Positions 30,853 through 40,700 of a DNA stretch of 64,000 nucleotides are shown one piece after another. Positions within the stretch are counted from its first letter, which is position 1. Every line of letters starts with the position of its first letter. The notes under the pieces are model-generated. The model saw only the letters and a list, made by a program, of their open reading frames with translations, ran no database searches and was not told the DNA's origin. The stretch lies in IMG/VR virus record IMGVR_UViG_3300020049_007105, positions 35,900 through 99,899 of that record; one strand, 5' to 3'. Source of the stretch: a virus. Its lineage: Duplodnaviria > Caudoviricetes. Both the position numbers and the translations under genes were made by a program.

Positions 30853-31761
30853 GTGTCACTTATCAGCGATCGGCGCATTAGCGCTAGTTTTCTCAAAACG
30901 TGGTCTTCGTGCCCCCAGAAGGGGTACTTTCGCTACGTTGAGGGGATCGCTGACGATGAGTCCTCGGGCAAGCAGGTGTTCGGTACAGTAATGCACCTCG
31001 TACTGGAAGAGGCACGAGAGCTTACCACATTCAAGCAGGCTATTCAACTGTTTGACTACTACTGGGATGATCCCGGTCTGATCGGTGAGAAGATCGACTA
31101 CTGGCACCAGGGCCATTCGAGGGAGGGGCTTCGCAAGAAGGCCCACAAGTCCCTTGAGATGATCTGGGAGATGAAGTCGATTACCGACAGCACCACTAGG
31201 GACATCCTGGCTCGTGAGCACAGGTTCCTCGTGCCAATGGGTGGTTACACACTGACTGGCGTGGTCGATCTAGTGGAGCTTGCTCCCGGCAAGAAGATCA
31301 AGATTGTTGATTACAAGTCAGCGAGTCGTAAACCGACTAAGGCTGAACTTGCGTTCGACATTCAGTTCACTACCTACGACTACGCCAGTTGGTCACCCTT
31401 CTTCTGGCTTGGCAACCCAGAAGACTATGACCAGTTTCCACCCATCACCGATGACAAGGAGTGGGTGGATGAGGTGACTACCATGTATAAGCGTCAGTTG
31501 ATTTGGTTTCACCTTATGACTGGCCAAGAGGTGGGCATGGAGGAGCGAGGGGAAAAGGATTATGCTCGCCTCTACTATCTCATTCAACAAATAGATAAGG
31601 CGGTACAGAATGAATCCCAAGTGCCTGACATCAGCGCAGATACATGCCGTTATTGCGCTTACACTGATATTTGCCCAGCAACCAAAGGATTTGATGAAGA
31701 ACTAGAAGACGCAGCATTCCCAACATACGCTGAAAAAACACCAGACAAGATTGAATTTTAG
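30853..31761 (+). CDS. Cas4/RecB-like PD-(D/E)XK exonuclease
   Basis: ISASFL..W..CP, GVVDLV, IVDYKS, QFTTY, C-terminal CRYCAY..IC Fe-S ligands. Confidence 0.9.
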   Translation: MSLISDRRISASFLKTWSSCPQKGYFRYVEGIADDESSGKQVFGTVMHLVLEEARELTTFKQAIQLFDYYWDDPGLIGEKIDYWHQGHSREGLRKKAHKSLEMIWEMKSITDSTTRDILAREHRFLVPMGGYTLTGVVDLVELAPGKKIKIVDYKSASRKPTKAELAFDIQFTTYDYASWSPFFWLGNPEDYDQFPPITDDKEWVDEVTTMYKRQLIWFHLMTGQEVGMEERGEKDYARLYYLIQQIDKAVQNESQVPDISADTCRYCAYTDICPATKGFDEELEDAAFPTYAEKTPDKIEF

Positions 31762-31770
31762 GAGAAAGAA

Positions 31771-32622
31771 ATGGCATTGACTATCGAGCGAACTACTGAG
31801 GAGTTCTTTCCGAAGACCATTAAGGCGGTGATGTTTGGACGACCTGGCGCTGGTAAGACCGCTCTGGTTGCCCAGTACCCCAATCCGCTGATTGTGGCTT
31901 CTGAGACCAACTTCATGTCTATTGCTGGTAAGGATATCCCGGTTGTTCGTTGTAATGATCTGGCTACTTACAAGGAGGTTATTCGTATTGCGAAGCTTCC
32001 TGCTGAGAAGCGGGCGGAGGAGTTTGGCTTTCCGGTTGACACTCTCGTGATTGACACCATTGATGAGCTTCAGACTTCGCTTATGAAGGAGAAGTATGGC
32101 ACCCTGAAGCTGGACTTTGATGGCTGGGCTTGGATCGCTGCAACTATGGGCGACTCGGTGAAGGCACTCAAGAAGGTTGATGACCTGAATGTGATCTTTA
32201 ACTGCCACATCAAGACTACCACTATTCCCGGTGATGCTGGTGAGGATATTGCTTCCCATGAGCCCCAGTTGAGCGGTGGCTTCAAGGATGTCCTGCCCGG
32301 TCTTGTTGATCTTGCGTTCATGATTGAGCCTAAGGTGACGAAGGTTGTGACACCTAAGGGCCTTGAGGAGGTTACCCAGAAGTGGTTTATCTGTCAGCCC
32401 AATGATCGCTATCCATTCCTGAAGGACGGCTCCCCTGGGACCCTCCCTTCTCGAATTGAGATGGACTTTGAGACTGACTACGACCGCATTCATGCTCTCG
32501 TCTATGAGGCCAAGGAGGGCGCCAAGGAGGCTGAGGAGGCCAAGATTGCAGCAGCCGCTAGTGCAGCAGCATCTTTCGCACAGCCTGAGCCTGAGCAGGC
32601 TTCCGAGCCTGAAGCGGCTTAA
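31771..32622 (+). CDS. Sak4-like AAA (AAA_24) ssDNA-annealing ATPase
   Basis: FGRPGAGKT, TLVIDTIDEL, NVIFNCH; sits between the exonuclease and SSB. Confidence 0.85.
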   Translation: MALTIERTTEEFFPKTIKAVMFGRPGAGKTALVAQYPNPLIVASETNFMSIAGKDIPVVRCNDLATYKEVIRIAKLPAEKRAEEFGFPVDTLVIDTIDELQTSLMKEKYGTLKLDFDGWAWIAATMGDSVKALKKVDDLNVIFNCHIKTTTIPGDAGEDIASHEPQLSGGFKDVLPGLVDLAFMIEPKVTKVVTPKGLEEVTQKWFICQPNDRYPFLKDGSPGTLPSRIEMDFETDYDRIHALVYEAKEGAKEAEEAKIAAAASAAASFAQPEPEQASEPEAA

Positions 32623-32679
32623 GTAACACAAGTTCCCAACAACGGTGCATTGCACCACAAACAATAAAGGAAGAAACAA

Positions 32680-33192
32680 ATGGCAGTTCTAGAGGTTGAA
32701 GAGTCAGACAAGTACCCAGTGTTCCCTGAGGGGACCGAGGTTAACGTGAAGGTGATGGGGGTGAAGCAGCAGGATTCGTTCTTTGACGTTGACAAGAACG
32801 ATCCGTCGAAGGGCAAGCAGAAGGAGCTTTCGTTCCGTTTCAAGATCACCGATCCTGAGTACGCACACCTGGATGACGTGCTGTGGGGTTCTGTGAGTCC
32901 TCCGGCACCGAAGGTGGGTAACCGCTCCTACCTGTGGATGTGCGCCTTGTTCGGCGTCGAGGAGCTTGCTATCGGCTTCGCTATCGACACTGACGACCTG
33001 ATTGGTCAGGAGGCTACGGCCACCCTTCAGCAGTGGACTTCTAAGAAGGGTGCCGTGGGTAACAGTGTTTCGGCGCTGTACTCCCAGAGTGCGGCCCCCA
33101 AGGCGCCCGTGGCTGAGCAGGGTTCGGCTACCCCAGCGGCTCCCACTAAGCCCTTTGCGGTGGAAGCCACCAACTTTGAGGAGCCCTTCTAG
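32680..33192 (+). CDS. Single-stranded DNA-binding protein (gp2.5/DUF669-like)
   Basis: PEGT..V, DTDDLIG, Ala/Pro linker and acidic-aromatic EEPF C-terminus. Confidence 0.75.
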   Translation: MAVLEVEESDKYPVFPEGTEVNVKVMGVKQQDSFFDVDKNDPSKGKQKELSFRFKITDPEYAHLDDVLWGSVSPPAPKVGNRSYLWMCALFGVEELAIGFAIDTDDLIGQEATATLQQWTSKKGAVGNSVSALYSQSAAPKAPVAEQGSATPAAPTKPFAVEATNFEEPF

Positions 33193-33224
33193 CAAGAAGG
33201 CGGTTCTCATGTAGGTAGTTGCCT

Positions 33225-33261
33225 GAATTGGGCGGGCTGTAAAAAGCAGCCCGCCCAATTC
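33225..33261. terminator. 15-bp perfect hairpin (terminator or attenuator) between SSB and primase
   Basis: GAATTGGGCGGGCTG-7 nt-CAGCCCGCCCAATTC. Confidence 0.6.
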
Positions 33262-33280
33262 TATTCACGAAGGGAGTTCT

Positions 33281-35221
33281 TTGGAAAGCTATGATTTCAA
33301 CAGTTTCGATCTAGCCTTGTACTTGGAGTCCAAGGGGCTCAGGTTTAAGCAAGTGAGTGGTGGCAGTGAGTATTTGGTTCACTGTATTGACCTAAACCAT
33401 GAAGACAAGTCAAGCCACGGCAAAATGTATGTCCATGCCTTTGGGGACAATAAGGGTCTGTATCAGTGTAAGTCCGCTGAGTGTGGGGCTAGTGGCAACC
33501 TAATCACAATGATGCGGCATTTCGGTGACGACCCCGATGGGTTGGTTCCGAAGGGTTCATCTGTTTCGGTCTCTAAGGTCCGTGGTGATTTCGCCACGAT
33601 GTGCCACGAGAGTCTTTCTTTGGAGATGCTGGACTATCTGGCAGACCGGGGAATTGAAGAGGGTTCAGCAGTCAAGTTTAGGCTTGGCGAGACCCCTAAG
33701 TCTCCTCACAAGATGATGCGGGACCGGGGCCACAGTGAAGAAGATTTGATTCGTGCCGGTCTTGTAGACAGTGACGGGAACTTCTTCTTTCGTGCTGGCT
33801 CTATGATCATCCCTTATCTTGTTGGTAAGGATGTGGTTACGCTGAGGGCCAGAAACTTCACTGACGGCGCACCTAAGTACATTGGGCTGAATTCCGACGC
33901 TGGTTTCCTGTTTAACTCTAACGACTGCCAGTCTCTCGAAGATGTGATCTATGTCTGTGAGGGCGAGCTGGATGCCATGACTCTTTCTCAGGCTGGGTTC
34001 GCTGTAGTCGCTACGGCGGGTGCATCCAGTTGGTTTGATGATTGGTCTACGGTCCTCTCAGACTTCCCCCATGTCTACTTCGTGTACGACGGGGAGGATG
34101 GGGCGTTCAAGTATGCGACAGTTGCGGCTGACCGTGTTGGTTCCACTGCTACAGCGCTTCGTCTTCCTGACGGGATGGATGTCAACCAGTTCTTTCAGGA
34201 TGAGGGCAAGTCAGCTTTCGAGTCGTTTGTGTCCCGCCAGTTGGAGGAGTCATTCCCATTCAAGACTCTTGAGTACCACCTGGCTGAGTGGAACCTGTAT
34301 CTGAACTCCGGTGAGCAGTGGCTAAAAACCGGCTACAAGCAGATTGACGATTCTCTGCCAGTTGGGATTCTTCCTAACCAGTTGATCATCTGGATCGCTA
34401 AGCCTTCGGTTGGTAAGACACAGTTTGCTATCAACATGCTGTATCGTCAGATGGTTATGTACCCGGACAAGAAGTTCCTGTTCTTCAGTTTGGAGCTTAA
34501 GGGCTATGAGGTACTGGACAGGCTGGTTAAGATTCACAGGTTCTATGACCTGAGCTCTGAAACCATTCAGGACAGCCTGAGGTTCTTTCAGGATCGTGTT
34601 CTTATCTTTGATGACAACAGGATTACTCGGGATGACTTGTGGCGTCACACTACGACCTATCTTGAGAAGTATGGTGAGCCACCAGCAGCAGCGTACCTGG
34701 ATTACCTCGGCTACTTTGCTAACAGCTATAAGGGTGATGGTTCCTATGAGAAGGTTTCATCTGCTGCGGCTGACTTGAAGGGTTGGGCTAAGGACTTCTC
34801 GATCCCCATGTTTGTTCCTCACCAGACCACTAAGGCTAACAAGCCCGGTGAGACTTTGGACATTGATGCTGGTGCAGACTCTGCGAAGGTCTCTGCTGCG
34901 GCTGACTATATGTTCACAATGTCATGGGCAGACCAGATGGGTGGTGCCTCTCAGGAGGAGATGACTGGTGAGGTTGTGGCCAAGGTTGTTAAGAACCGTG
35001 CCGGTCCAGCTCACATTGAGATGAAGCTTCAGCGTGCCCCTTACTCTTATGTGTTTGCTGCGGGCACTAACTACGAGAAACCTCAGAAGCAGGGTCTCGA
35101 TCCGTTCCTGATGGCTAAGAAGGAGCACAAGTGGAGTCAGGCTAAGCATAATTATGAGACAGCGATGGGTCGCCATCGCACTCAGGATGACAATCTGATT
35201 GTTGTAGGAAAGGGGAAGTGA
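33281..35221 (+). CDS. DNA primase-helicase (Zn finger + TOPRIM + DnaB-like SF4)
   Basis: C..H...C....C Zn finger, CEGELDAM, Walker A AKPSVGKT, FFSLE, LDYL, KNRAG. Confidence 0.93.
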   Translation: MESYDFNSFDLALYLESKGLRFKQVSGGSEYLVHCIDLNHEDKSSHGKMYVHAFGDNKGLYQCKSAECGASGNLITMMRHFGDDPDGLVPKGSSVSVSKVRGDFATMCHESLSLEMLDYLADRGIEEGSAVKFRLGETPKSPHKMMRDRGHSEEDLIRAGLVDSDGNFFFRAGSMIIPYLVGKDVVTLRARNFTDGAPKYIGLNSDAGFLFNSNDCQSLEDVIYVCEGELDAMTLSQAGFAVVATAGASSWFDDWSTVLSDFPHVYFVYDGEDGAFKYATVAADRVGSTATALRLPDGMDVNQFFQDEGKSAFESFVSRQLEESFPFKTLEYHLAEWNLYLNSGEQWLKTGYKQIDDSLPVGILPNQLIIWIAKPSVGKTQFAINMLYRQMVMYPDKKFLFFSLELKGYEVLDRLVKIHRFYDLSSETIQDSLRFFQDRVLIFDDNRITRDDLWRHTTTYLEKYGEPPAAAYLDYLGYFANSYKGDGSYEKVSSAAADLKGWAKDFSIPMFVPHQTTKANKPGETLDIDAGADSAKVSAAADYMFTMSWADQMGGASQEEMTGEVVAKVVKNRAGPAHIEMKLQRAPYSYVFAAGTNYEKPQKQGLDPFLMAKKEHKWSQAKHNYETAMGRHRTQDDNLIVVGKGK

Positions 35222-35222
35222 A

Positions 35223-35687
35223 ATGGCAATTGTAGGCAGAAAGGTTAACCCGGAGTCTGTTAAGAATGTCACTACGTTGGCAGATTATCTGCACTCCAGG
35301 TACGGTCTGGCTCGTCCAGCTAGCGTAAAAGACAAGTCGCTTGACAAGAAGGCACTTGATTGGTTCTGGGAAAACTACCCGAACGCCACTTGGCAGGACT
35401 TGTGTAGACTGGCAGACCATGTGTTTAAGTCTAAGCAGTACAGGCCAAAGCACATTTATGGTCTTATCACGTACAACGCTAGGGAGGCATGGGCTGAGGG
35501 CGTGTTGAAGCCTCAGGACCCCGGTCTCCGTAGTTTGGAGCAGAAGATTGCGGAGTGTGTTGAGCAAACTAATAGTTTAGATGTTGATGCCAAGGAGTAT
35601 TGGACTATGAGGTTTACTCATGCAGTTGGTCCTGGACGTGCCATGGTATTTAATGAATTTAATAAATGGATGAAAGAGAATATGTAA
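35223..35687 (+). CDS. Hypothetical protein
   Basis: 154-aa ORF coupled to neighbours. Confidence 0.6.
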   Translation: MAIVGRKVNPESVKNVTTLADYLHSRYGLARPASVKDKSLDKKALDWFWENYPNATWQDLCRLADHVFKSKQYRPKHIYGLITYNAREAWAEGVLKPQDPGLRSLEQKIAECVEQTNSLDVDAKEYWTMRFTHAVGPGRAMVFNEFNKWMKENM

Positions 35688-35992
35688 TGGAACGAAACAG
35701 TGTGATGGAGTCGGTGAATAACCCGAAGCGCCTTAGGATCATGAGTATCCAGTTTGGTGTTGACGGTATGGATGTTACTTATACTGACGAGAACATGAAG
35801 GGGCGTATTGTCAGTAGCATTCTGACTAGTGGTATTGATTTCCATGCGGACCTTGGTGAGGAGGTTAGCGGTGCGATTATGGACATTGTTGAGACGACTC
35901 GTGAGTTGATTGAGTTGGCTCATAAGCGTGAGGTTGGAGTGCCTGATGTTCTTTACACAGGGAGGGTTGGTAACGAAGATGTCTCTGAGTGA
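35687..35992 (+). CDS. Hypothetical protein
   Basis: TAATG-coupled start. Confidence 0.55.
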   Translation: MERNSVMESVNNPKRLRIMSIQFGVDGMDVTYTDENMKGRIVSSILTSGIDFHADLGEEVSGAIMDIVETTRELIELAHKREVGVPDVLYTGRVGNEDVSE

Positions 35993-36560
35993 TCATGGGA
36001 GGTGTCATTACTGTAATGTCAGGCTTCCGAGAGGCGAGCTGAAGAGGTTTCAGTTTAAGTTCTTCTGCATTGACCACATCGGTACGGCGCTGGAGGACTC
36101 AGTACCCCTCACACCCGCTCAGAGCCCGCTGAAGGGGCGTTCAGGCATCGCCAAGGGGGGTAGTAGCCTAAAGCAGGGTGCGAGGCTACAGCGGGCTCCT
36201 GTGGGCTCAGGCGGGAATCAAGAGAAAAAGGGTTTAGGTGACTCGGGTGGTATTGTCCGTACATCTAAACCTCTTGATAAAAAGCTCAGGGGGGAGGTGA
36301 TGGATCGAGATAGCCACAGGTGCCGAATGTGTGGGCGAAGTGGCGAATCGAACAGGCTCGACCCCCACCATGTTATCTATAAGTCCATGGGGGGTAAGGA
36401 CGAGATGGGGAACCTGATCACGCTCTGCTTCCGTTGCCACGTACCGATCGTCCACCAGGACCGCAAGAGGTGGCAACCAGTGTGTATTCATGCACTTGAA
36501 ACAGGAAGTCTGAAGCGACTACCTACCGTAGAGAAAGAGATGCTAAATGCAGGAGATTAG
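35979..36560 (+). CDS. HNH endonuclease with N-terminal Zn ribbon
   Basis: RDSHRCRMCG...HHVI...NLITLCFRCH; N-terminal CxxC...FC; RBS GGAGG. Confidence 0.85.
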   Translation: MSLSDHGRCHYCNVRLPRGELKRFQFKFFCIDHIGTALEDSVPLTPAQSPLKGRSGIAKGGSSLKQGARLQRAPVGSGGNQEKKGLGDSGGIVRTSKPLDKKLRGEVMDRDSHRCRMCGRSGESNRLDPHHVIYKSMGGKDEMGNLITLCFRCHVPIVHQDRKRWQPVCIHALETGSLKRLPTVEKEMLNAGD

Positions 36561-36909
36561 ATTTGAAGCCATAGAGGGGACAATCTTTACAGAGTCATTC
36601 CTAAGTGATCACCTTGGCCCTGACAAGACAGTCAAGGATTTCTTTGACTTCGTGTCCAGTATTATCCAGCAACTGGTCGGGTGTTACATAGCCAACGACG
36701 CTCTGTTGTTCAGGAACTCTCTGTATGTAATTGTAGGTTGGCGAGATAAGCAACTTTCTATGATCGTCATTCAGGAACTTGTCGTCCTGTGTGGTTCTGG
36801 GATTGTCTCAATGTCAGAACTAGCAGGAGTGAGCATCCTGGAGTCGTGGACAGGGCTAGCAGAAATGTATGAAGAAGGACTCGAAGATAGAAAGCAGGTA
36901 TTGGGTTGA
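36547..36909 (+). CDS. Hypothetical protein
   Basis: 120-aa ORF overlapping both neighbours. Confidence 0.5.
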   Translation: MQEIRFEAIEGTIFTESFLSDHLGPDKTVKDFFDFVSSIIQQLVGCYIANDALLFRNSLYVIVGWRDKQLSMIVIQELVVLCGSGIVSMSELAGVSILESWTGLAEMYEEGLEDRKQVLG

Positions 36910-38459
36910 GTACACGTAGCCGTTTCAAGAGGATGCCCGAAGAAAAGCTTTGGGTTCTCTACAAGGATTCAAAACACAAGGATTCACGAGGAGCACAGGA
37001 GGAGATTGCACGGAGGTATTACAATCTTGTAGAAAAGGCAGCAGGCAAGAAGTATGCTGGCACACCAAAAAGCGTAAGTTTGGATGAACTCCAATCTGAT
37101 GCACAACTGGGTCTCCATGACGCTATGAAGCGTTATGACCCAAGTGTCGGTGCGCCTTTTGGAAGCTGGGCCTACCTAAAGATGACTGGACATATGCAGG
37201 ATGGCCTTCGTCGCCTGGCCAGTCTGAAGTCTGCACCTATCACTAATGCCGATGTTCCTATCGAACATCTTGAGTCAGAGGAGGACTGGGACGCTGACAC
37301 GTCTATTAAGGCCAGGATGAACACGGCTACCCGTGAGATTCAGAAGGCCGTAATCAATCTCTCTGAGAGAGAGCTGGACCTCATGCTGGAGATTCTTGGA
37401 AACAAGAAAGCTCTGGACGGTAAAATTCACCGGGCTAAAATTGAAGGCCCCGAATGCGTACACGCTTTTGACAAGATTCTTTGGAGTATCGTAATGAAGA
37501 AAGACACTATCGCTAACCTCAATAAGAACGAGAAGGGTAAGGCTCGACCGTTTGAGATTCAACAGATTTCTGACCTCGACCTGAAGGACCCAGAGTTCTT
37601 CCCTACTGGTGTTCTCCAGATTGATGAGAAGCTTGGGGGTGGTTTCGCTAAGGGTCGTATCGTTGAATTGTATGGCATGGAGGGTTCAGGTAAGACAAGC
37701 TTGAGCCTCACTGCTGCCGGTGTTGCCCAAAAGGCTGGCGTGAACTGCCTCCTGTATGACCTTGAGTCTACATTTGACCGCAAGTTCTCAACCAAACTCG
37801 GTGTTGATGTGGACAAGTTGTTCTACACGACTGGTGGTATTGCTGAGGATGCTTTGGAGTCTGTGATTGCTGCGGCTGAGACTGGTGAGTTTGGCATTAT
37901 CATTGTGGATTCTGTTGCGGCCTTGATGAGCCGTGCAGAGTTTGAGGGTGAGATTGGTCAGGCCAACATTGGTGCTGTGGCTCGTATCCTTGGCCAGGCT
38001 ATGCGGAAGCTCGCAAAGATCGCTGCTGAGTCTGGTACCACTGTCATCTTTATCAACCAGCTTCGTGACAATGTGGGTGGCTTCACTGGACCATCTAAGA
38101 TCACTCCAGGAGGTAAGGCTCTTAGGTTCTTTGCTTCTCAGCGCATTGAGGTTGTTGGTAACATCGGCCAGATTAAGAAGGGTGATGTTACTGTTGGTAA
38201 GAAGACCCTTATGAAGGTCATTAAGAACAAGCTTGCTTCACCAATGCAGCAGTGTGAGGTTGAGTTCTATTTTGAGTCGGGCTACAGCAATGGTGACTAT
38301 CTGCTCGACATTGCTATTAAGGAGGGTAGGATTGCTCAGAAGGGAGCATGGTTCTATGACGGTGAGACTGGAGAGAAAATTGGGCAGGGTCGAGCGAAGG
38401 CTTTCGATTGGCTTGAAGAGCAGGAAGGGGTGGCTGGAGAAGGTTCGGCACCTGCTTAA
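36906..38459 (+). CDS. recA: Sigma70-family (FliA/WhiG-like) sigma domain fused in frame to RecA
   Basis: aa 1-196: ELQSDAQLGLHDAMKRYDP..GAPFGSWA...GHMQDGLR (region 2) and LSERE. From M197 (37494): GRIVELYGMEGSGKT, IIVDSVAAL, IFINQLR, TPGGKALRFFAS, KNKLA, KGAWF. Confidence 0.9.
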   Translation: MSTRSRFKRMPEEKLWVLYKDSKHKDSRGAQEEIARRYYNLVEKAAGKKYAGTPKSVSLDELQSDAQLGLHDAMKRYDPSVGAPFGSWAYLKMTGHMQDGLRRLASLKSAPITNADVPIEHLESEEDWDADTSIKARMNTATREIQKAVINLSERELDLMLEILGNKKALDGKIHRAKIEGPECVHAFDKILWSIVMKKDTIANLNKNEKGKARPFEIQQISDLDLKDPEFFPTGVLQIDEKLGGGFAKGRIVELYGMEGSGKTSLSLTAAGVAQKAGVNCLLYDLESTFDRKFSTKLGVDVDKLFYTTGGIAEDALESVIAAAETGEFGIIIVDSVAALMSRAEFEGEIGQANIGAVARILGQAMRKLAKIAAESGTTVIFINQLRDNVGGFTGPSKITPGGKALRFFASQRIEVVGNIGQIKKGDVTVGKKTLMKVIKNKLASPMQQCEVEFYFESGYSNGDYLLDIAIKEGRIAQKGAWFYDGETGEKIGQGRAKAFDWLEEQEGVAGEGSAPA

Positions 38460-38507
38460 GGTCGGCACCCCCTCTGACGATGACTAGCAGGGCGTAAACC
38501 TGAGAAC

Positions 38508-38550
38508 GCAAAAAGCCCCCGGTGATTTCTCACCGGGGGCTTTGCCATTT
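38508..38550. terminator. Bidirectional intrinsic terminator where the two arms converge
   Basis: AAAGCCCCCGGTGA-TTTC-TCACCGGGGGCTTT with A/T tracts on both sides. Confidence 0.9.
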
Positions 38551-38584
38551 ACTCTAAGTTGTTTCAGTGGCGTTCATCCTGTGG

Positions 38585-40097
38585 CTATGAGCCGTATTCC
38601 GAGGGGTAGAAAGCGATACGCACAATTTTATCAGCCAGGACACGGGCTTCGGTCTCAGTCTCGCACTCCAAATATGCAGAGCCCCCGCCGTTCAAAAGGA
38701 TGTTAACCTCAGTGGTGGTGCCCAAGACCTCAACCTTCACCCCAGAGATGCAGTCGGCCCTGAGGTGCAAGTTGGGCCGAACATAGACAACCTTCGGGCC
38801 TCCTTCTCCAACTTCGTTAATGTCACTAGCCTTAGTCAAATTACTCATACTTTTCTCTCTTCCTTTAGTTTGTTAACATCTACTGCCACTAGGGCAAGGG
38901 CAATTCCGATACAAACACAACAGTAGGCACTCACTGCCACTCCTACTGTGCCGCCTACATGGTACCACAGCACCGCTCCAAGGATTGCCAGCGGCAGTGC
39001 AAACAGCATCGAGGCAATTCGTTTACGTGTGTCCATGAGTTAGTCGTCTCCAAAAAGTCGGACTACTGACGCATGGATGAGCTTGACCATCAAGAACACC
39101 GGCCACAGGAAGTACATCAAGAAGCAGGCAATGAAGAGTCCCCACCAGAAGAAGCAGGCAATGAAGGGTCCCCACCAGTCATTCTTAGCTGGATGGATGT
39201 ACTCTCCATCCCAAACCACATAGACAAGAACCACCCAGAGGGTGCTCAACATAGCATAGAGCAGAATAAAGTAAATCATTTGGACTCCTTCTTGTTTTTG
39301 AGGCTTTCGAGCCTCTTCTTTGACGAACAGGTGAGTAGTACTACTATCAACCCAAATGGCAGAAAGATGGGCCAGAAACAGAAAAGGACTCCTGCATAAT
39401 ATCTAGCCGTCCAGTCATCTTCAAAAAGAGAGAGCCTTTCTGCAACATATAGCCACAATGTGACTCTATAGCATATGTACCCGATAAAAAAGTACCCGGC
39501 GATCCACAGTGCGACAATCATTCTGTTTCCCACACTCCAAACGTACTGTTCCACTTTACAGGCTTCCATTCTGAACCCAACGGTCTGCCAACCATCGCTG
39601 AGATAAAGAGACTAACAGCGAACTCAGTCGCAGAGATGTGGCCATATTCTGTGAACCTCCAGGTTGCGAAGCCAATCCAGAACAGGAGGCCGATCAGGCC
39701 AAGCCACCACTCGAAAGGTTGAACTCTCATTCGGGCTGGTAGGCTTGGTAGCAATCGCAGGCCATCAATGAACTTTTTCATTACTGCTCCTTAGCTAAAA
39801 TGGTGTGTAAATGAAGCCGCCGATAATAGCGTCTTGCATTAAGATCAATCTGTTGATTCTCTTACGGTGACTCTTGATATTTTTGTGAGCTTTTTTCAAT
39901 TGCTTTCGGCTCTCAGCCAGCCCTTCTCTTGCTTCTGCCCATCCTTTAAGGTCAGAAGTGTTAGACACTAGAACCAACTTACCCTCCCAGTGCCAAGCCT
40001 GATGTTCCAAGCTGGGAATCCAGTCGAGCCTATTGTTCATGGCTTCGGTGTGTTCTTCTATACGGTCCTGTAAGTCTTGAAGTCCTTCCTCATCCAT
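38585..40097 (-). CDS. Six small genes, four of them membrane proteins (38585-38848, 38845-39036, 39040-39279, 39276-39521, 39518-39781, 39795-40097)
   Basis: ATGA-coupled chain; long hydrophobic segments; 39795-40097 is a coiled coil. Confidence 0.6.
39119..39178. repeat. 30-bp tandem duplication inside a membrane protein gene
   Basis: AAGAAGCAGGCAATGAAG(A/G)GTCCCCACCAG twice, encoding WWG(P/L)FIACF(F/L). Confidence 0.85.
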
Positions 40098-40110: not shown

Positions 40111-40671
40111 TCATGGCTTCTGTTTGAATACGGTTGGGCGACCCCCGAGCGTGGCAGACTCACGGCGTGCAATAATTCCTTCAACACGCTGTGTCCACGC
40201 TAGACCTGCCCTCAGCTCCTCTAGGGCCTCCACTGACGGCTGTTCGCCTGAAGTCAAGGAGGGGAGTAGCCGAAGCTCAGCCCGCCCCAACAGGAGGCCG
40301 CTAGGAGACATGGAGTGTCGAGCAGTCCAGCTCAGGTTAGACAGCTTCTTACCATCCAACACGAAGGTATCAAACACCCACAGGTTTCCGCTCAGGAGTT
40401 CGCAATCATAGATTGCGAAACTTCCCTGGCACCCTGACTTGTAGTGATCCCCCGACTCACCTACGGCTTCATAGCTTAGCTGTCCGTAGAGCTTCTGGTT
40501 CTTGGACAGCAGTAGTGCTCCGGTTGGAGCGACCACTGCAATACAGCGCTTGCCATCAATCTTGGGCTGATAAACCCAATCTCCTTCCTTGAAAGGCATA
40601 GTTTCTGTTGTGGTTTTGGGTGTAGGCATAACTGAATATGCCCAGTCCACCAATTCCTTGTGGTTTGTCAT
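40111..40671 (-). CDS. ATP-dependent ligase, nucleotidyltransferase domain only
   Basis: Motif I QPKIDG.R, III YDCEL, IIIa VFD, IV EGIIAR, V FKQKP then stop; RBS AGGAG before ATG 40671. Confidence 0.85.
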   Translation of the reverse strand: MTNHKELVDWAYSVMPTPKTTTETMPFKEGDWVYQPKIDGKRCIAVVAPTGALLLSKNQKLYGQLSYEAVGESGDHYKSGCQGSFAIYDCELLSGNLWVFDTFVLDGKKLSNLSWTARHSMSPSGLLLGRAELRLLPSLTSGEQPSVEALEELRAGLAWTQRVEGIIARRESATLGGRPTVFKQKP

Positions 40672-40700
40672 ACATTCTCCTGTTTGCTTTGACACTAAGG

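Follow-up and report, generated by a model that had tools for sequence, protein, structure and literature searches.

A conserved in-frame fusion of a small sigma factor gene and recA in an uncultured phage

Does an open reading frame (ORF) that joins a sigma factor-like region to RecA represent a genuine phage gene, and, if so, how did it arise and what might it do? This question is raised by the window, the whole stretch of 64,000 nucleotides of viral DNA analyzed here, in which positions 36906–38459 of the + strand form a single ORF of 517 codons starting with TTG, within a stop-to-stop frame of 522 codons; initiation at ATG 36933 (codon 10) would give 508 aa instead of 517 aa. The first-pass annotation described this ORF as a sigma-like N-terminal 196 aa followed by a complete RecA at aa 197–517, and the Pfam and PHROGs results agree with that description. 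Pfam detects Sigma70_r2 (PF04542) at aa 35–104 (32.5 bits; cut-off, 24), RecA (PF00154) at aa 220–460 (E = 2.8e-64) and RecA_C (PF21096) at aa 466–510 (35.1 bits; cut-off, 27), and PHROGs assign the same protein to both phrog_351 (sigma factor) and phrog_97 (UvsX-like recombinase). An ESM Atlas search with the fusion protein matched RecA clusters only, and a whole-protein search of cultured phages gave matches to the RecA part only. A natural sigma–RecA architecture was found neither in the literature (8.4 million papers and preprints searched), consistent with the earlier statement that no described fusion of this kind was known, nor among cultured phages or 1.84 billion representative proteins outside the clade described below. 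The protein is a new domain architecture made from two known families. This uncultured phage (~120 kb) has a genuine, conserved, in-frame gene for a small sigma factor and a complete RecA, and it is practically certain that the gene is real rather than a product of assembly.

The fused protein represents a cluster at 90% identity, whose 13 full-length members lie on ~25 contigs of up to 120.6 kb. The copy in the window was compared with ten more from JGI, ENA and Logan assemblies, which were produced with different assemblers. These 11 copies come from at least 10 metagenomes and comprise six haplotypes, and every one is 1554 nt long with zero indels and zero internal stops. Counted at codon positions 3/1/2, the polymorphic sites number 28/1/0 for sigma and 44/7/2 for RecA, and a comparison of the window with the most distant strain gives Nei–Gojobori pN/pS values of 0.014 for sigma and 0.077 for RecA. 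The codon-position bias and the pN/pS values indicate that the sigma part is translated in the frame that continues into RecA and is strongly constrained. As judged from these substitution patterns, both halves are under purifying selection. Several contigs of 120.5–120.6 kb carry the fused gene, which suggests a full genome length of ~120 kb; the record containing the window is 99.9 kb and is rated 73% complete.

A search of 5.8 billion proteins identified a second fused lineage, P0005 (contig L001), of 498 aa with 49% identity over 98% coverage and the same two Pfam domains. The two proteins are joined at the same point, reading ...KILWSVT-MGK in P0005 and ...KILWSIV-MKK in the window (KILWS-xx-M). 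In other relatives the two parts are separate. On contig L002 (ENA ERZ15185861 NODE_43; 113.7 kb), the gene for a 206-aa sigma factor (P0137; 7388–8008) lies directly before recA (P0006; 8001–8969) with an 8-nt overlap, AATGGCTAA. P0006 is the closest free RecA, with 54–55% identity to the RecA module, and the closest free sigma factor is P0138, which has 204 aa and 54–56% identity; in the P0138 lineage, the sigma gene overlaps its downstream gene by 8 nt. Taken together, these split sister phages resemble the window in sequence (34–55% identity for sigma, 54% for RecA), in the gene order HNH, small ORF, sigma and recA, and in the presence of the same Shine–Dalgarno (SD) sequence before recA, and differ in that they have separate proteins whose genes overlap by 8 nt, whereas the window encodes one polypeptide.

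A profile made from the four sigma parts, when searched against 1.84 billion representatives, recovers four clusters at <1e-30, the next match being at 1.5e-16, so that by sequence the sigma clade comprises four lineages, two of them fused and two split. No further relatives came from scanning viral and metagenome contigs for patterns, and cultured phages gave no DNA match. The best maximum-likelihood tree built from the sigma parts has the topology (P0137 split,(P0138 split,(window,P0005))), with support of 96/97 for the clade of three lineages and 69/28 for the fused pair. In AU tests, the window and P0138 as sisters are not rejected (p = 0.42) and a clade of the split forms is rejected (p = 0.035). 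In the RecA tree, the three RecAs form a 100% clade with no internal resolution. The identical phase of the two junctions, together with the sigma tree, makes a single fusion in the ancestor of both fused lineages the simplest reading; a single origin is favored by these data, not proven. The earlier proposal to see whether the fusion is conserved has the answer that a second lineage is fused at the same junction and that two relatives are split; because one distant lineage is fused, it is not the case that all close relatives are split.

The DNA at the junction, ...AAG ATT CTT TGG AGT ATC GTA ATG AAG..., records how the two genes were probably joined. In the +1 frame from 37483, the window reads GGA GTA TCG TAA (G-V-S-stop), in which the TAA (37492–37494; + strand), as part of TAATG, overlaps the recA ATG; the corresponding reading in L001 is GGA GCG TAA. 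The split sigma factors P0137 and P0138 end in ...EGVVANG* and ...EGVSNG*, respectively, and the G-V-S-stop of the window matches the latter. Thus, the C-terminus and stop of the old sigma gene remain visible out of frame, the TAA being a vestigial stop of the former separate gene. The stretch immediately before the SD is two bases shorter in the fused forms (ATT CTT TGG AG) than in L002 (ATT GTA GAA GGA G), and this shortage suffices to shift sigma into the recA frame. The GTAATG at the junction had been taken as a warning that one indel may have joined two genes. As history this is right; as a caution about the data it does not apply, since the fusion is fixed across independent assemblies.

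The recA module has kept its own initiation signals. A GGAG at 37483–37486 (+ strand), 7 nt before ATG 37494, can be read in the sequence as had been pointed out, and this GGAG-7 nt-ATG is invariant in the six haplotypes while nearby synonymous sites vary. The spacer is 7 nt in the fused L001 and 9 nt in the split L002. The residues encoded at the SD differ, being W-S in the fused forms vs. E-G in the split forms. In-frame internal GGAG-N5-9-ATG sites occur 13 times in the 24,209 codons of the genome (5e-4 per codon). Free RecA is therefore argued to be made by internal initiation, as the SD has been kept although the coded residues differ, and as such sites are rare. With odds slightly better than even, one ORF would thus give rise to two products, a sigma–RecA protein of ~57 kDa and a free RecA of ~35 kDa. 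Conservation of the GGAG and ATG could instead stem from selection on the protein to keep W, S (AGY) and M.

The RecA module (37494–38459; + strand) has 321 aa from its own ATG, and its extent is supported by Pfam, by alignment with E. coli RecA and by the AlphaFold2 (AF2) model of the core. It aligns with E. coli RecA residues ~27–317 (E ~1e-68). The Pfam core (fusion aa 220–460) is encoded at 37563–38285 and the C-terminal domain (RecA_C; aa 466–510) at 38301–38435, both on the + strand. The E. coli RecA alignment places Walker A (GMEGSGKT), DLES with the equivalent of E96, and Walker B (IIIVDSVAAL), and EGEIGQANIGAVAR and INQLRDNVGGFTGPSKITPGGKALRFF match the E. coli L1 and L2 DNA-binding loops, respectively. 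These alignments show the catalytic and DNA-binding motifs to be intact, and we infer that the RecA module and free RecA would drive recombination or recombination-dependent replication. Compared with phage and bacterial RecA proteins (E. coli RecA, PDB 3cmu/2reb, and the RecA-like recombinases of mycobacteriophage clusters), the module is 43–46% identical in the core and has the full set of motifs as well as the C-terminal domain; unlike them, it bears an N-terminal 196-aa sigma module, beside a predicted helix that may be the one that packs on the neighboring protomer in RecA filaments. AF2 modeling of the full-length protein gives the RecA core a pLDDT of ~90, and the last sigma helix (182–195) is followed by a three-residue break and a short RecA N-terminal helix (199–208; pLDDT 53–63). 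Positions 1–20 of the Pfam RecA model are without a match in the fusion protein. The sigma part and the junction have low confidence in this full-length model because the alignment is shallow there.

The sigma module begins with region 2 (aa 35–104; 37008–37217, + strand), which the first-pass annotation had assigned to the FliA/WhiG type. Pfam, PDB profile matches and AF2 superposition all bear out the presence of this region, and the profile matches its type. In the PDB profile search with the sigma part, the best matches are WhiG (6pfj; 6e-11) and FliA (1e-9 to 3e-9). An AF2 model of aa 1–196 was built from a 38-sequence alignment (mean pLDDT 85.9), and its aa 8–105 superpose (VIA-align) on region 2 of sigma-S, sigma-70 and WhiG with Z of 12–13.7 and an rmsd of 1.3–2.3 Å over 88–96 residues. 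Region 2, which in the sigma-70 family serves core binding, -10 recognition and melting, is well conserved, and its core-binding and -10-recognition part is intact. FliA and WhiG (PDB 6pfj, 9wsm and 6pmi) are thus the best matches for region 2 in both sequence and structure, but have 240–280 aa with regions 3 and 4, whereas the sigma part of the window has 196 aa, in which region 3 and the region 4 helix–turn–helix (HTH) are undetectable.

Region 2 is followed in the AF2 model by a poorly conserved acidic linker and then by helices at 133–150, 154–165, 167–170 and 182–195 (pLDDT 50–80), with a pLDDT of ~50 at aa 172–178. The C-terminal helical piece (aa 152–196; 37359–37493, + strand), delineated by MAFFT, hhalign and the AF2 helices, has 45 aa and thereby the length and position of sigma-4, with a detectable 4.1-like helix, LSERELDLMLEIL. 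A MAFFT alignment that includes short sigma factors having Pfam region 4 places aa 152–196 opposite that region column for column. The earlier view that region 4 is shortened has thus to be abandoned, as a piece of full region-4 length is present. The significant profile–profile similarity of the sigma part found by hhalign ends at aa 167, i.e., at the 4.1-like helix; the piece alone gives no match in hhalign (Prob 0.45%), and neither Pfam region 4 family (PF04545, PF08281) matches in any of the four lineages. Region 4 is thus best described, from the end of this similarity and the lack of a match for the piece alone, as divergent or undemonstrated in a domain of normal length. As a sigma-4 HTH, which in this family recognizes the -35 element and binds the beta-flap, is not detectable, the sigma function is read from region 2 only, and we infer on this basis that the module would direct host RNA polymerase to phage promoters.

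No other Sigma70_r2 was matched in the record (73% complete), a k-mer search of 62 intergenic regions found no repeated phage promoter motif at k of at least 8, and a sigma-70 promoter scan gave four sites vs. 3.0 expected. Comparison of the sigma part with the sigma factors of cultured phages detected no close similarity, and one weak match was found to an uncultured phage.

The explanation that best accommodates these observations, to which we give a probability of about three in four as a whole, is a fixed fusion of two functional modules. The ancestor of the clade would have had a compact sigma gene (~205 aa) adjoining recA and translationally coupled to it via an overlapping stop and start, an arrangement that the two split lineages retain. 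A deletion of ~2 nt just 5' of the recA SD would have moved the sigma frame into the recA frame, so that the old sigma stop was bypassed and persists out of frame (+1) within TAATG. Two lineages, which have now diverged to 49% identity, would have kept the fused ORF since then. Translation of full-length sigma–RecA would begin at TTG 36906 through coupling to the ORF before it, and that of free RecA at ATG 37494. That relatives keep both genes as overlapping neighbors links sigma and RecA as a pair, and the covalent link would be at least tolerated and at most a refinement of a prior functional link reflected in adjacency and translational coupling.

When neighboring genes that are translationally coupled fuse, this is a classic sign that their products work together, and the clade, with its fused and split members, is for this reason a natural experiment on the question whether the transcription program of a phage is tied to recombination. 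The locus also cleanly illustrates how a stop/start overlap turns into a fusion with the internal ribosome-binding site kept. For annotation pipelines, the consequence is that the fused ORF should be left whole rather than 'corrected' to a pair of genes.

Late transcription of phage T4 depends on gp55, a minimal sigma factor without region 4, on the co-activator gp33 and on the sliding clamp gp45, which are linked non-covalently. By analogy, a small phage sigma factor could here be tied to a DNA-loading replication/recombination protein, with the differences that the link to RecA is covalent, the coupling itself being a proposal, and that a sigma-4-sized domain is present. On a functional reading of this kind, which the first-pass annotation had raised and which we regard as tentative and rather unlikely, sigma–RecA would co-polymerize with free RecA on single-stranded DNA of recombining or replicating genomes and concentrate or activate the sigma/RNA polymerase holoenzyme, tying late transcription to recombination-dependent replication. 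The fusion protein would, with similarly low likelihood, enter filaments of internally started free RecA in substoichiometric amounts and bring host RNA polymerase to phage recombination and replication intermediates. If so, late transcription, or transcription-primed recombination-dependent replication, would depend on recombination, and the system would parallel the T4 clamp-coupled late switch but with a covalent link. It is possible that the sigma part acts in a gp55-like manner, i.e., as a sigma factor without region 4.

Rosetta-stone logic is consistent with such coupling, as the two genes lie side by side with an overlap throughout the clade and have become one gene in two of its lineages, and so is the persistence of the fused state over divergence to 49% identity. 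The internal start would provide free RecA for mixed filaments, and the linker is short, the helices at 182–195 and 199–208 being separated by only the three-residue break. In Twort-like (Herelleviridae) phages, a gene for a RecA-like recombinase adjoins that for a phage sigma factor, in the reversed order (rec then sig) and as separate genes (PMC5618024), and engineered RecA chimeras are reported to form filaments that can tether other activities (PMC3105420). However, two split lineages manage without the covalent link, meaning that fusion is not required for the sigma/RecA pair; in addition, the k-mer search of the 62 intergenic regions yielded no late-promoter motif, and the full-length AF2 model has low confidence at the sigma part and the junction.

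The sigma-like N-terminus might alternatively have ceased to be a sigma factor and, having diverged, now serve RecA as an accessory or regulatory domain, e.g., one recruiting RNA polymerase or another partner to sites of recombination, or be an inactive remnant. We consider this improbable. It would account for the failure of Pfam region 4 to match in all four lineages, for the end of hhalign similarity at aa 167 with a C-terminal piece that matches nothing by itself, and for the pLDDT of ~50 at aa 172–178, but region 2 is conserved with its core-binding and -10-recognition part intact, and the homologous protein is the product of a separate gene of 204–206 aa in the split relatives. The form in which the domain is a decaying remnant is excluded by the pN/pS of 0.014 in the sigma part.

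A programmed +1 frameshift at CUU UGG (37477–37482) would in addition yield a free sigma factor ending in ...F-G-V-S-stop, so that three products would come from one ORF; we give this only a slim chance. CUU-U is the slip site of prfB. The two fused lineages have exactly the same CTT TGG AG, and the +1 frame ends at TAA within four codons in both, but the site lacks an upstream SD-like stimulator, and its A site holds neither a stop nor a codon known to be hungry. The SD together with W/S coding explains why CTT TGG AG is conserved, and the +1 stop is accounted for as a vestige of the former sigma gene; from the sequence, this identity is most likely a vestige of the old frame plus the SD. Finally, the possibility that a miscalled indel joined two genes during sequencing or assembly, which the TAATG at the junction with its stop in the +1 frame and the existence of split-gene relatives might have favored, is effectively refuted by the identical ORF length in at least 10 independent metagenomes and six haplotypes, by the third-position periodicity that spans the sigma part in the fused frame, and by the 49%-identical lineage joined at the same point.

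The fixed fusion of two functional modules, which remains the preferred reading, has a conserved setting. The gene order is the same everywhere in the clade: primase–helicase, small ORFs, HNH, a 112–122-aa ORF, sigma and recA. In the window, the last ORF before the fusion encodes 120 aa (36547–36909; + strand), and its TGA stop and the TTG at which the fused gene begins overlap in TTGA. This ORF has no match in Pfam, PHROGs or the Atlas. An ORF of 112–122 aa overlaps the sigma start in all relatives, including L001 (5333–5701) and L002 (7060–7398), both with an overlap of 11 nt, and its product may act together with the sigma factor or regulate it.

Farther 5' of the fusion lies a conserved replication/recombination block (window 30853–36560; + strand), which includes genes for a PD-(D/E)XK nuclease (30853–31761), an AAA_24 ATPase (31771–32622), a primase–DnaB helicase (33281–35221) and an HNH endonuclease (35910–36560), all on the + strand. 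The corresponding block of L002 has an extra RuvC-like gene. The fused gene is the last of a block of ~31 genes on the + strand, and the genes at 38585–64000 are almost all on the - strand, so that transcription converges at ~38.5 kb; no canonical intrinsic terminator was found at 38460–38584. Among the - strand genes, a 194-aa ORF (40111–40695) resembles ATP-dependent DNA ligase only weakly in PHROGs (phrog_114; 2.7e-5).
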